Assembly (NCBI GenBank): GCA_029856105.1
Contig: JAHQWH010000212.1
Location: forward strand, 1 to 15,857
DNA length: 15,857 nt
Reading direction: 5' to 3'
Source of the DNA: Promethearchaeia archaeon
GTDB taxonomy: Archaea; Asgardarchaeota; Lokiarchaeia; Sigyniarchaeales; SOKP01
In this document: in pieces, positions 3,337 to 6,217 of the stretch
How the letters are laid out: each line of letters starts with the position of its first letter
Position numbering within the stretch: the first letter of the stretch is position 1
The notes under the pieces: generated by a model
The model's input: the letters and a program-made list of their open reading frames with translations, nothing else
Databases searched by the model: none
Told to the model about the DNA's origin: nothing
Program-made: the position numbers and the translations under genes

Positions 3337-3410
3337 AAATTAGAAAAAAATTAAAAAATGATATAAAAACATCTAAAAATTAAAGAAAAAAATTATTCTT
3401 TAACGGTTTC
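3337..3410. repeat. Direct repeat copy B: last codons of tes (ETVKE*) plus its T-tract terminator region
   Basis: See copy A. Includes the tes stop codon and the minus-strand TTTTTTT tracts. Confidence 0.85.
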
Positions 3411-5093
3411 TAACAATTCCTTTATTTCAGCTTGGATAACTTCTGGCTTTTTGGCAGCTTGATCTGAAATTACATTGCCCATTTCTATTCTTTCTCTATG
3501 TAGCGTATTCATTGCACAGAAGGGAATCTCTAATACTTTAGAATGGTCTTCAGGGTCAATCACACCATAGTGTACCAAGCATTTAGAAACTCTATCGAGG
3601 TCGAAGTTGTAAGCGTCTTGGAAATGCATGGCTGAGACCATTAGATTACGTGTGTGCAAGAAACTCGCTGCCGAGGCTAAATTCGGAGACACAATCAATC
3701 GTACAAAACCTTGATAAGTTTTGCTGGTTAAGAATTTCTCTGGTTGCTTCACAAACTTAACTGCGCCTGCAAAGAAATAAGCTTTCATCATCTGCCGATA
3801 TCCGAGATCGGTCATATCGTCAATGAATTTTCCAATAGTACTGGGAACAGCGCCAAGATCATTGAGGTTTATACCTTTTAATAATCCCGTAGGTTTTGGA
3901 ATTTCTTTTCCTTGGACCATGTCATAAACTTTATTTGACCATCTTACAAGCCCTTCCGAGTCAAAATAATGGTCGAGCGACTTCCATTGCTCTTTTTCGT
4001 CAATTATCATGATAGTTGCGAATCCACAATCTTTGTGGCTCGTCATACTAAACTCTTGCACGTTATCGAACCAAGCTAATAATCTAGTCATTTTTGCTGT
4101 AAAAGCTATTGGATAAAATCTTGGTATTGCATTATTTGTGTGTTTATTAATTGCTACCTTAAGATCTGAAGTTGTATATCTCAAATCCATTAATTCCTCA
4201 AAACTTATTCGACCACAGAGAGAGACTGGTTGGAATACTATTCCAGAAACCACATCGCTATTATCTCTTGCGAAGTCTAAAATGTTTCCTACTTCGTGAT
4301 CGTTAACGCCTTTAGCTACTACCGGAACTAGCATTACACCAAAGTACCCTATTTTTCTACAATTTTCGATTACTCTCTTTTTTAAAGGCCATAGGTTAAC
4401 TCCCCGTATCTTTTTCCAGACTTCTGGGTCGTCAGTTGCATCAAACTGTAAATAGATGGCGTCCATCCCGGCATCTTTACATTGTTGTAAGAAATCGATA
4501 GATTTTGCAAATCTGATGCCGTTAGTTGTGACCATAACTTCAACAAAACCAAGTTCTTTCCCTTTACGAATTATATCTGGAAGATCGTCTCGAATAGTGG
4601 GTTCTCCACCAGATATTTGTAACATAACTGCACCCACGGGTTTCATTGATCTGAAGTGTTCCATAATTAGAACAAGTTGATCAAATGTGGGCTCTACAAC
4701 GTATCCTTTCGCGCTTGCGTTTGCAAAACAAATCGGACACGTTAAATTACAACGATTAGTAATGTCAATAAGGCAAATGTTAGGAGCGCTCTGATGATTT
4801 TCGCAAAGTCCGCAATCGTATGGGCATCCATTCACAGTCTTTTTTATTCCTGAGCTTGTATATTCAGGTTTAGTAGAATTATTTATAGTAGACCCGATTT
4901 CGTCTGTAAAAGTCTCACCCCATTTGTATTCTTCTGGATCAATTGAGAGTTTATCTTTAAAGTCACCGTGTTCTGCACAATTTTTTCTCATCATGACCCA
5001 GTTAGTTTCGGGATCGACATAGATTTCCGCTGGAATTGTTTGTAAGCATTCTGGACATATGCTTGTAGTTCGTCTTATAATTTCTTCTGTCAT
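3393..5093 (-). CDS. tes: Radical SAM tetraether lipid synthase (Tes / GDGT-MAS, MJ0619 family)
   Basis: N-terminal rubredoxin-like SICPEC...KNCAEHG, auxiliary-cluster motif GCPYDCGLCENH, radical SAM CNLTCPIC, SGGEPT, HKDCG, and C-terminal MHFQDAYNFDLDRVSKCLVHY...IPFC, all characteristic of this family. ATG at 5093 is preferred over TTG 5102. Confidence 0.88.
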   Translation of the reverse strand: MTEEIIRRTTSICPECLQTIPAEIYVDPETNWVMMRKNCAEHGDFKDKLSIDPEEYKWGETFTDEIGSTINNSTKPEYTSSGIKKTVNGCPYDCGLCENHQSAPNICLIDITNRCNLTCPICFANASAKGYVVEPTFDQLVLIMEHFRSMKPVGAVMLQISGGEPTIRDDLPDIIRKGKELGFVEVMVTTNGIRFAKSIDFLQQCKDAGMDAIYLQFDATDDPEVWKKIRGVNLWPLKKRVIENCRKIGYFGVMLVPVVAKGVNDHEVGNILDFARDNSDVVSGIVFQPVSLCGRISFEELMDLRYTTSDLKVAINKHTNNAIPRFYPIAFTAKMTRLLAWFDNVQEFSMTSHKDCGFATIMIIDEKEQWKSLDHYFDSEGLVRWSNKVYDMVQGKEIPKPTGLLKGINLNDLGAVPSTIGKFIDDMTDLGYRQMMKAYFFAGAVKFVKQPEKFLTSKTYQGFVRLIVSPNLASAASFLHTRNLMVSAMHFQDAYNFDLDRVSKCLVHYGVIDPEDHSKVLEIPFCAMNTLHRERIEMGNVISDQAAKKPEVIQAEIKELLETVKE

Positions 5094-5371
5094 AAGTATC
5101 AATTTAAGTTATTTTTTTAATAAAATTATGATTAAATAATAATTTATTTGATTAGAAAAAACGTTATTGTATTTATTTGTTTTCGTACCTTTCGTATTAT
5201 TAATAGTATTATCGATATTATTTATTATTAAAAAAGAGTTAATAAATTATTAAAATCCAACAATTCTTTTAATTCAAGTCTTATCTTCGCCTAAAGTTAA
5301 GATACTTTAAGATAAATGTTTGTCTTAAAACCTCACAGAGCAAATTATAATCGGATAAAATCGATATAAAA

Positions 5372-5492
5372 GGGAGACTCCTGCCACCTCGACCTAATGA
5401 TAAGGTCAGAAATAAAATAGGGGGAGGAGGGCGAAATAAGTGTGTAAAACACACTACCAAAAGACAAAAATCCAGGGTGGGGCAGGAGTCAT
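5372..5492. ncRNA. Candidate structured small non-coding RNA / cis-regulatory RNA (family not recognised)
   Basis: 57/120 GC at 5371-5490 vs 8/60 at 5521-5580. Terminal stem 5376-5385 GACTCCTGCC pairs perfectly with 5481-5490 and extends ACC/GGT after a 2-nt bulge. Internal hairpins 5391-5407 (GACCT-N7-AGGTC) and 5439-5455 (AGTGTGT-AAA-ACACACT). Confidence 0.65.
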
Positions 5493-5821
5493 GGTTTTAT
5501 ACAAATTCCCTATTTTATTTAACTTTAATTTATATTACTTTGTTTATTAATTCTTATCTTCTATGATTTTTATATGTTTTAAACATATATATTTTTATCT
5601 TAAGTATTTAATATCGTTAGTGATATTTAAAAGAATTGTTGATATTTTGAAACTTTTGTCTAGTAATTATTAACAGTTTGATTAGTTTTACAACAATTAC
5701 AATGTTATTCTCATTGATTTGATTTATTAAAAAATTTTTAAATATGGTTTAATTATTACATACAAATACAAAAATAGATTGATTTTTTCTAAACATAAAA
5801 TAAAAAACAAAGAGATTCTTG

Positions 5822-6217
5822 ATGGAAGCAGAGAGCAACGAAATAAATAAATCGAGAGAAAAGGCGGAGCCTGACCTAAAGTTAGAGGTTTGGACGTTAA
5901 TATTTGTCGTTGTAGGTTTTATCGCATCGTGGTTTAATATGATCTTTATTTTGGAAGCTCCTCGAGCGATAGAAGTTCTAGCGTTTTTATCAATCATACT
6001 TACGACAATAATTCCTGGGGTGATTATAGCCATAATTAATAGATATTGGGGTTACGGTTATTTAATCGGGTTCGCGAGCGCGGGTATTCCATTTTTGATT
6101 TTCGTTGATCTCTTTATTGGTGGCTACTCATTTGCTACTACGATTTTTATTTTCATAATTTTATGGTTAATATTTTGGAAAACATGGCGCAGTTTAAGTT
6201 CAATTAAAACGGGATAA
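5822..6217 (+). CDS. Small integral membrane protein (~4 TM helices), unknown function
   Basis: Charged N-tail followed by four hydrophobic segments (VWTLIFVVVGFIASWFNMIFIL; VLAFLSIILTTIIPGVIIAII; WGYGYLIGFASAGIPFLIFVDLFI; FATTIFIFIILWLIFW) and a basic C-tail. ATG at 5822. Confidence 0.8.
   Translation: MEAESNEINKSREKAEPDLKLEVWTLIFVVVGFIASWFNMIFILEAPRAIEVLAFLSIILTTIIPGVIIAIINRYWGYGYLIGFASAGIPFLIFVDLFIGGYSFATTIFIFIILWLIFWKTWRSLSSIKTG

Follow-up and report, generated by a model that had tools for sequence, protein, structure and literature searches.

A family of covarying, multi-copy small RNAs in one family of Promethearchaeia

Results

An RNA gene upstream of a Tes-like gene

The window analysed here, a stretch of 15,857 nucleotides (nt) from a Promethearchaeia archaeon (contig JAHQWH010000212.1), contains a 716-bp spacer flanked by a minus-strand gene for a Tes-like radical SAM protein (tes) and by a divergent plus-strand gene for a 132-residue membrane protein (c1). 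Our analyses show that the minus strand at 5368–5498 of this spacer is one gene of an undescribed family of structured small RNAs, found, as far as searched, in one GTDB family of Promethearchaeia (Lokiarchaeia). The gene lies in the GC-rich island noticed in a preliminary description of the same DNA, the GC fraction being 0.41–0.42 over 5350–5499 and 0.14–0.19 in the flanks on both sides. That description had also assigned the host to the Asgard archaea, which is correct, and almost all of the sequence features it listed were found where it placed them: on the minus strand, the TATA-like TTAAATAA at 5522–5515, an AU5G-like GAUUUUUGU at 5472–5464 and a 3' end reading CCCUUUU (5374–5368), together with two hairpins, GACCT/AGGTC at 5391–5407 and AGTGTG(T)/(A)CACACT at 5439–5455.

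On the minus strand, the segment folded alone reaches a minimum free energy of -42.6 kcal/mol (z -6.0), and on the plus strand one of -40.6 kcal/mol (z -3.9); none of 200 dinucleotide shuffles equals the native stability on either strand. The core consists of a terminal stem (P1), a short helix (P2), two hairpins (P3 and P4) with a C-rich linker between them, and a U-tract at the 3' end, and RNAfold preserves this core fold within the putative 238-nt primary transcript. The perfect 10-bp part of the closing stem (5376–5385 with 5481–5490) stands as first proposed, but its suggested extension by a 2-nt bulge and three further pairs does not: the comparative data prefer a 1-nt bulge and two pairs, CC at 5480–5479 with GG at 5388–5387, which covary strongly. 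The adjacent ACC (5478–5476) pairs locally with GGU (5458–5456) and thereby closes a U-rich loop. The linker between P3 and P4 (J3/4) contains a C-rich, anti-Shine-Dalgarno-like tract, CGCCCUCCUCCCCC (5433–5420), and a motif that we call a', CCCUAUUUUAUUU (5422–5410); its C-rich part varies among paralogues.

Distribution and known-family searches

The genome of the window holds five copies of the element, the other four being 80–85% identical to it and all intergenic by BLAST, and the limits of homology among the five lie no more than a few bases from those of the element. Two covariance models were built, R1 from these five copies and R2 from 51 diverse copies. R1 detects all 24 genomes of the genus, with one to nine copies each, and R2 detects 123 of 131 genomes of the GTDB family and 36 of the 39 high-quality genomes of the order sample (1–18 copies each). 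At a completeness of at least 80%, every one of 29 family genomes is positive, as against none of 121 genomes from 24 other Asgard families; the sole match outside the family lies on a 1.8-kb contig of a fragmented metagenome-assembled genome (MAG).

Exact matches to the 18-mer TGGATTTTTGTCTTTTGG among 185,579 species genomes fall mostly in MAGs titled Promethearchaeota or Promethearchaeia, with a few bacterial records. In most of the bacterial ones no structured element is apparent, and two, L139 and L127, give weak partial model matches. Some of the matching records bear other Asgard phylum names from their submitters, and at least one of these belongs to the GTDB genus of the window; since submitter names are inconsistent in this way, the distribution given here rests on the model search. 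Six viral contigs contain the exact 18-mer, and a single one of them, L203, carries a real, divergent member. It lies at 39–147 of that locus (minus strand), on the IMG/VR contig IMGVR_UViG_3300029288_000001 (224,826 bp, classed as viral), scores 41.7 bits and keeps the core, the hairpin and the C-rich linker.

No Rfam 15 family reaches its gathering score in the window or in ten paralogue loci. At E ≤ 10 the best sub-threshold match in the window is the rimP leader, whose 22.1 bits (E 0.22) fall short of its gathering score of 47, and ARAGORN finds nothing, and so no tRNA-like domain; the initial impression that the element fits no tRNA, SRP, RNase P or riboswitch therefore held up under the Rfam and ARAGORN checks. 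Nor is the RNA described in any paper found by full-text search. With homologues throughout the family, covariation and no Rfam match, the proposal of a stand-alone, unannotated structured RNA is upheld. The possibility of a C/D-box or H/ACA small RNA was rejected: the alignment has neither C/D boxes (RUGAUGA, CUGA) nor H/ACA boxes at its ends, the tail reads (A/U)CCYUUU, and Rfam returns no snoRNA-type match.

Covariation identifies the helices and the strand

Covariation was assessed over 51 distinct, diverse copies and 29 modelled pairs. Standard pairs fill 95.3% of the cells, as against 34–54% when the 3' partners are slid by one to three columns, and both sides change at 22 of the 29 pairs (163 cells). 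On each of five covariation measures, all of 500 column shuffles stay below the observed value, and 65 copies give the same picture, so that the homologues sought in the preliminary description, with compensatory changes in their stems, exist. Every pair of P1 (10 bp, 1-nt bulge, 2 bp), P3 and P4 shows compensatory changes; in P1 alone, double changes occur at all 12 pairs, with 41 G-U against 10 A-C cells. Since the 3' strand of P2 belongs to the invariant segment described below, the changes in this helix are confined to G-U and U-G. A 4-bp mini-hairpin modelled within the U-rich loop never varies and is therefore unsupported. The alignments were fitted to the model; the helices are nevertheless short and their flanks align unambiguously, and MAFFT with RNAalifold on the five original copies gives the same helices.

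These data also bear on the strand, which had been left open. Among the non-Watson-Crick cells of the variable helices, G-U outnumbers A-C or C-A by 69 to 19 in the diverse set and by 83 to 20 (G-U against A-C) in the first copy set. A canonical TATA box with its transcription factor B recognition element (BRE) lies upstream in the minus orientation only. Homology among paralogues continues for a further 60–230 nt upstream but on the other side breaks off at most a few bases from the 3' U-tract, where conservation among orthologues is lost as well. For these four reasons the RNA strand is, on sequence criteria, the minus strand. Table 1 lists the parts of the RNA, its putative control region and the two neighbouring genes.

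Table 1. Features of the RNA gene and its surroundings in the window (R1 and R2, covariance models).
Feature	Coordinates	Strand	Evidence and remarks
Core structured RNA, about 131 nt as modelled	5368..5498	-	Covariance model matches of 144.8 bits (R1) and 138 bits (R2); fold z -6.0; covariation
P1 5' strand, GACUCCUGCC plus CC extension	5479..5490	-	Pairs with 5376-5388
P1 3' strand, GG-U-GGCAGGAGUC	5376..5388	-	Comparative pairing
Near-invariant segment CCCUGGAUUUUUGUCUUUUGGUAG	5454..5477	-	17-nt U-rich loop CUGGAUUUUUGUCUUUU closed by 3-bp P2
P3 hairpin, AGUGUGU-UUU-ACACACU	5439..5455	-	Compensatory changes in all 5 modelled pairs
Linker J3/4, single-stranded	5408..5438	-	Unpaired in consensus folds
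P4 hairpin, GACCU-UAUCAUU-AGGUC	5391..5407	-	Compensatory changes in all 5 pairs; 97% of cells paired
3' tail UCCCUUUU, likely U-tract terminator or 3' end	5368..5375	-	Consensus (A/U)CC(C/U)UUU; orthologue and paralogue homology stops here
Motif a, AAAUAAAAUAGGG	5508..5520	-	13-nt perfect complement of a' in the core
Leader motif AAGAUAAAAAU	5591..5601	-	Reverse complement, with one G-U, of loop AUUUUUGUCUU; about 22 nt past the TATA box
Candidate promoter: TATA box TTTTAAATA (5632-5624) plus upstream BRE position	5624..5639	-	Identical in 14 tes-locus orthologues
Tes-like radical SAM protein (context)	3393..5102	-	NCBIfam NF045702 at 434.9 bits, cut-off 450; Pfam Radical_SAM; same-strand gene downstream of the RNA
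c1, 132-residue membrane protein (context)	5819..6217	+	Divergent; syntenic with the RNA; no family matched in Pfam or NCBIfam

A near-invariant segment under nucleotide-level constraint

Within these freely changing helices, which differ by 20–40% among 65 copies (set A5), the segment CCCUGGAUUUUUGUCUUUUGGUAG is essentially unchanged in full-length copies. A further 73 matches (set A6) were retrieved by the exact 18-mer itself, and the independent evidence for invariance is thus the 65 copies of A5. Its 17-nt loop is closed by P2, adjoins P3 and holds the Sm-type sequences GGAUUUUUGUC and GUCUUUUGG, near-invariant in the A5 copies and present in all the further ones; a U-rich site of Sm type flanked by helices is therefore found here.

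The same invariant nucleotides fall in different reading frames among copies, and the invariant 22-mer shows no third-position variation of the synonymous type; the constraint therefore acts on nucleotides rather than on coding. This bears directly on the proposal that the locus is a small mRNA, with either a leaderless 12-codon micro-ORF on the minus strand, in which AUG-ACU-...-UGG-UAG would encode the leader peptide MTPAPPWIFVFW, or a short plus-strand ORF preceded by a Shine-Dalgarno (SD) sequence. In most copies P1 does begin at an AUG, the peptide recurs in at least 18 copies, and a plus-strand GTG has GGAGGAGGG 8 nt ahead of it. However, an ORF with a start codon is found in at most 43% of 107 copies, whichever the frame or strand, the AUG is missing in about 20% of copies, and in about one third a +1 indel separates the AUG from the invariant segment and moves the latter into another frame. 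With reading frames this inconsistent, both the micro-ORF and the plus-strand ORF were rejected, and we consider a coding function extremely improbable.

Promoter and leader

Outside the core, 14 tes-locus orthologues share only two fully conserved blocks: AATT(C/A)TTTTAAATA at 5639–5624 and, about 22 nt downstream of it, TAAGATAAAAAT at 5602–5591. Paralogues in unrelated contexts show the same arrangement, (T)GAAAAGRTTTAAATA followed 22–28 nt later by AAGATAAAAT, at 100–160 nt before the core. This order of promoter and leader motif is seen at four of the five copies in the genome of the window, and most copies in the family have a candidate BRE/TATA promoter at the same 100–160 nt upstream. 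At about 22 nt past the TATA box, the leader motif lies near the expected start of transcription. Of 103 non-redundant copies, 50 carry AAGAYAAAA upstream in the sense orientation, as against 2.7% of AT-rich background windows and 4–5% for the controls (other orientations, the downstream flank and permuted motifs); many of these copies are orthologous, and the count is not one of independent events.

The motif AAGAYAAAA is the reverse complement of UUUUGUCUU in the invariant loop, with one G-U if Y is U. Motif a (AAAUAAAAUAGGG, 5520–5508) can in turn pair with a' (5422–5410): among 32 copies, 85% of the cells are paired, against 52–57% when the strands are slid, and one position runs through the series U-A, U-G and C-G. 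Through these two complementarities, the A-rich leader matches the loop and the linker, the two conserved single strands of the core. Each pairing would cross P1, so that a-a' would be a pseudoknot or an alternative pairing. We consider the leader–core complementarity to be a real feature of the sequences, for which self-masking of the precursor, feedback of the mature RNA on nascent transcripts and sites at the DNA level are the candidate explanations.

Two more copies of an anti-loop-like motif occur, AGAAGAUAAGAA in the leader (5551–5562, minus strand) and AGACAAAAG upstream of the TATA box (5653–5661, minus strand), so that the upstream region has three sites complementary to the invariant loop. 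The putative leader also contains a perfect AU-rich palindrome, (A)UAUAUGUUUAAAACAUAUA (5571–5589, minus strand), between two AAGAUAA-type motifs; only the closest tes-locus orthologues keep it.

Genomic context of the copies

The gene order c0–c1 (opposite strand)–RNA–tes occurs in about 22 genomes of the genus and recurs in 20 of 80 loci from other MAGs, in which identity falls to 66% for Tes and 47% for c1 and the 22-mer is identical. Judging from this synteny, the tes-linked copy is the ancestral one, at a locus fixed across the family. There are smaller syntenic groups as well, with a copy upstream of a Roadblock/LC7 gene, a copy downstream of a SpoU methylase and a copy convergent with a 240-residue protein. 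The preliminary description had asked whether homologues stay in place or move: one copy stays at tes, and paralogues precede unrelated genes. Downstream genes are heterogeneous (Tes, Roadblock/LC7, CN hydrolase and several without a known family), and the upstream same-strand neighbours include amidohydrolase, mTERF-like, BNR-repeat, Kre9-like and zinc-ribbon proteins. About 19 of 65 copies (about 30%) face a convergent gene, and in three tes-locus orthologues (L030, L032 and L033) an opposite-strand gene ends 47–50 nt after the RNA, between it and tes. No transposase, TnpB, reverse transcriptase or integrase was found among the neighbours scanned, and a TnpB/IscB omega-RNA or transposon guide RNA was rejected for want of a nuclease or transposase neighbour.

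In the genome with 18 copies, these are 72–95% identical to one another and some stand in tandem about 290 nt apart; judged by this spread of identities, the set resembles a gene family that has diverged and not the product of a recent burst. Its tandem pairs are L223/L231 (G125:C14:149078-149497) and L229/L234 (G125:C14:3364-3786), and L215/L217 (G125:C22) form a duplicate at 2.1-kb spacing with identical scores. Elsewhere, paralogues in differing contexts (L053, L054, L056, L057 and L059, in genomes G004 and G008) share about 230 nt upstream and, in some cases, about 110 nt downstream; the shared downstream flank includes the block GGGTACTAAATTAGTACGGACCGAAC. Given these shared flanks, the duplicated unit can exceed 500 bp; it has no Rfam match.

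Several neighbours deserve mention in their own right. The Roadblock/LC7 protein downstream of one paralogue (L003:1868-2272, plus strand) matches PF03259 with E 4.8e-13, by which no link to the RNA is implied. The family of the 240-residue protein, which has no Pfam family, forms tandem arrays of two to four paralogues with 46–56% identity in several genomes of the genus (L244, L258, L263 and L266 at G008:C20:121008-124381, and similarly in G012, G014, G015, G022 and G123). A conserved, beta-rich protein of 85–92 residues lies 78–140 nt downstream of three copies (L005:1762-2037, L052:1710-1988 and L044:1579-1836, all on the plus strand); its 91-residue representative c11 has no match in Pfam, NCBIfam or the PDB, and its AlphaFold2 (AF2) model, at a pLDDT of 43, is too poor to be of use; a suggested Sm-like identity for c11 finds no support in these searches.

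Discussion

Our comparative analyses of the element upstream of tes revealed a terminal stem and two hairpins whose pairs covary, a rigid U-rich loop set between them, and a promoter-like region that accompanies most copies. That this is a real RNA structure maintained by selection we hold to be highly probable. For a functional, stand-alone RNA our confidence runs from rather favourable to high, according to how much is claimed, and in its fuller form, that of a stand-alone RNA acting in trans, it is the reading that we favour with some reserve. We propose the following model. Each copy would be an independent transcription unit, started from a BRE/TATA promoter 100–160 nt upstream and ending at the U-tract. 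The leader would mask the core in the precursor, or the mature RNA would bind the leader as a form of feedback, and the mature, stem-closed core would act in trans as a ribonucleoprotein (RNP), with the invariant U-rich loop as a platform for protein binding. The paralogue-specific C-rich linker, which is CCUCC-like, may then pair with purine-rich, SD-like RNA.

What might bind the invariant loop? We read the invariant segment as a site for protein binding or a tertiary contact, and not as the seed of a pairing with one particular target. The best candidate partner appears to be an Sm-like archaeal protein, given the GAUUUUUG and CUUUUGG of the loop, and Sm/Lsm binding is plausible on the strength of these motifs; the genome encodes four LSM-domain proteins, none of whose genes adjoins a copy of the RNA. 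The linker of the tes copy has CCUCC-type tracts, and SD-like motifs are enriched at positions -18 to -10 of ORF starts for a subset of genes in this genome, so that pairing of the linker with purine-rich sites is conceivable. The specific combination of Sm binding with anti-SD pairing is nonetheless a tentative proposal, which we would think doubtful as it stands. More speculative, and unlikely to hold in full, is the idea that the loop is a true Sm site and that the RNA scaffolds an abundant Sm-ring RNP in Lokiarchaeia, a lineage-specific analogue of the Sm-class small nuclear RNPs in which the linker would guide the particle to purine-rich sites and the leader would autoregulate maturation.

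Comparison with known systems places the RNA close to several of them and within none. Like the Sm- or Hfq-dependent small RNAs (sRNAs), that is, the bacterial Hfq sRNAs and the archaeal SmAP sRNAs, it is encoded by a gene that stands alone, has its own promoter and ends in a U-tract, and it combines a U-rich single-stranded segment of protein-binding type beside stems with a separate C-rich single strand as a possible SD seed, in which the paralogues mainly differ. Unlike them, it carries the U-rich site as an internal 17-nt loop rather than in a 3' tail or AU-rich linker and is closed by a long terminal stem, and it has no sequence or model similarity to described families. In Sm-class small nuclear RNAs (snRNAs), the Sm site RAU4-6GR is flanked by stem-loops, with AAUUUGUCUAG as the U7 variant. 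The element's GAUUUUUGU, or GUCUUUUGG, appears to resemble such a site between helices, and its Asgard host has several LSM-domain proteins, but it has no snRNA match in Rfam and no spliceosomal context, and its absence from all 121 genomes of other Asgard families argues against homology with eukaryotic snRNAs. Y RNA and YrlA share its size of about 100–130 nt, the joining of the ends by a long bulged stem, an internal single strand rich in pyrimidines and a 3' end rich in U. This likeness, raised in the preliminary description, did not survive: the Y_RNA and YrlA models of Rfam give no match even at E ≤ 10, and no TROVE/Ro60 protein (PF05731) was found in the 92%-complete genome, the Deinococcus and Bacteroides controls being positive. 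The Y RNA idea was therefore dropped. Qrr1-5 of Vibrio form a multi-copy family of paralogous sRNAs, and they offer a parallel in their several diverged copies per genome, own promoters, invariant and variable parts and tandem pairs; they differ in belonging to another domain of life, in showing no sequence relationship and in a copy number far less variable than the 1–18 seen here.

Several observations weigh against the model as a whole. The ends, strand and expression of the RNA are all deduced from the DNA. No good complement of the invariant segment exists elsewhere in the genome, the best ungapped one, apart from the antisense of the copies themselves, having 17 Watson-Crick and 5 G-U pairs of 24, and scans for targets of the C-rich linker give scattered 9- to 10-mers and no coherent set. 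The covariation of a-a' is not above that of column shuffles in the 32 copies, and motif a is missing in divergent members. Some effect in cis by read-through is possible, in view of the constant co-orientation with tes and the short U4 tract. In addition, one anti-loop copy (5661–5653) precedes the TATA box, a position as compatible with a site at the DNA level as with RNA pairing. On an explanation built upon this last point, the inverted pairs AAGAYAAAAAT/ATTTTTRTCTT and AAATAAAATAGGG/CCCTATTTTATTT would be sites for a DNA-binding protein, which would account for the invariance. Both conserved single-stranded segments do recur inverted upstream, the 5661–5653 copy is outside the transcript from that promoter, and the unremarkable covariation of a-a' speaks for it as well. 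However, it leaves unexplained both the strong, strand-specific covariation of P1, P3 and P4 and the fact that the invariant motif sits, in every case, in a loop whose closing pairs tolerate wobble, and divergent members retain the core without motif a; we regard such DNA-level regulation as very improbable.

Two further alternatives concern the position and the number of the copies. In one, the domain would regulate tes and other downstream genes in cis, as a leader, an attenuator or a switch akin to a riboswitch: the domain with its U-tract would terminate transcription or allow read-through, and a/a' would serve as the switch. In its favour, the ancestral copy invariably precedes tes on the same strand, 230–500 nt away; about two thirds of all copies precede a same-strand gene, the U-tract is short, and competing or crossing pairings exist. 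Yet the downstream genes are unrelated, about a third of the copies are convergent with their neighbour, an opposite-strand gene intervenes in the three orthologues mentioned above, a-a' and P1 use different bases, a-a' is missing in divergent members, and homology stops at the U-tract and never reaches toward the downstream gene. A leader for tes, as originally suggested, is thus not supported, and the wider version we judge to be unlikely. The other alternative treats the element as selfish DNA, a dispersed repeat like a miniature inverted-repeat transposable element (MITE) or other non-autonomous mobile DNA, with the 10-bp stem as its terminal inverted repeat. Short, intergenic and bounded by inverted termini, the element resembles a MITE also in its numbers, from 1 to 18 per genome and varying between species, in the several hundred bp of flank common to some paralogues and in the divergent copy on an IMG/VR contig. 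Its behaviour is otherwise. One locus has been kept across the family while the neighbouring proteins fell to about 50% identity; the supposed terminal repeat is free to change so long as pairing is kept, tolerating G-U and not A-C; and the internal hairpins covary. Nor is the repeated unit bounded by the inverted repeat: homology passes both arms of the stem by 8 nt and then continues for 60–230 nt on the upstream side only, giving an asymmetric unit with a long promoter side and a sharp 3' side. No target-site duplication was seen in the five genome copies and the 65 aligned copies, the copies have diverged to 72–95% identity with no sign of a recent burst, and no transposase lies nearby. 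For the copy linked to the neighbour gene c6, every true c6 orthologue bears the RNA, which leaves no empty site for comparison. The multi-copy MITE named in the preliminary description as a possible refutation is therefore right as to copy number and wrong as to mobile behaviour, and a mobile repeat seems to us quite improbable. The fixed locus, the diverged copies and the unrelated neighbours together speak against both a MITE and a tes-specific cis element; the pattern would fit an RNA gene that duplicates at the DNA level along with its promoter.

What is the relevance of this RNA family? Archaeal small structured RNA genes are already known as a kind, and what is new here is the family, its architecture and its leader–core complementarities. 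Its restriction to one family makes it an unlikely ancestor of the eukaryotic Sm-class RNAs, which tempers its significance. Non-coding RNA is nevertheless little known in the Asgard archaea, the closest prokaryotic relatives of eukaryotes, and the present work adds a well-supported RNA family, with two covariance models and covariation at most pairs, that is near-universal in one Lokiarchaeial family. Invariance beside freely covarying helices usually signals a specific macromolecular partner, and the rigid 22-nt segment offers a handle for finding an RNA-binding protein, Sm-like or other, and for the study of RNPs in organisms that are hard to culture.

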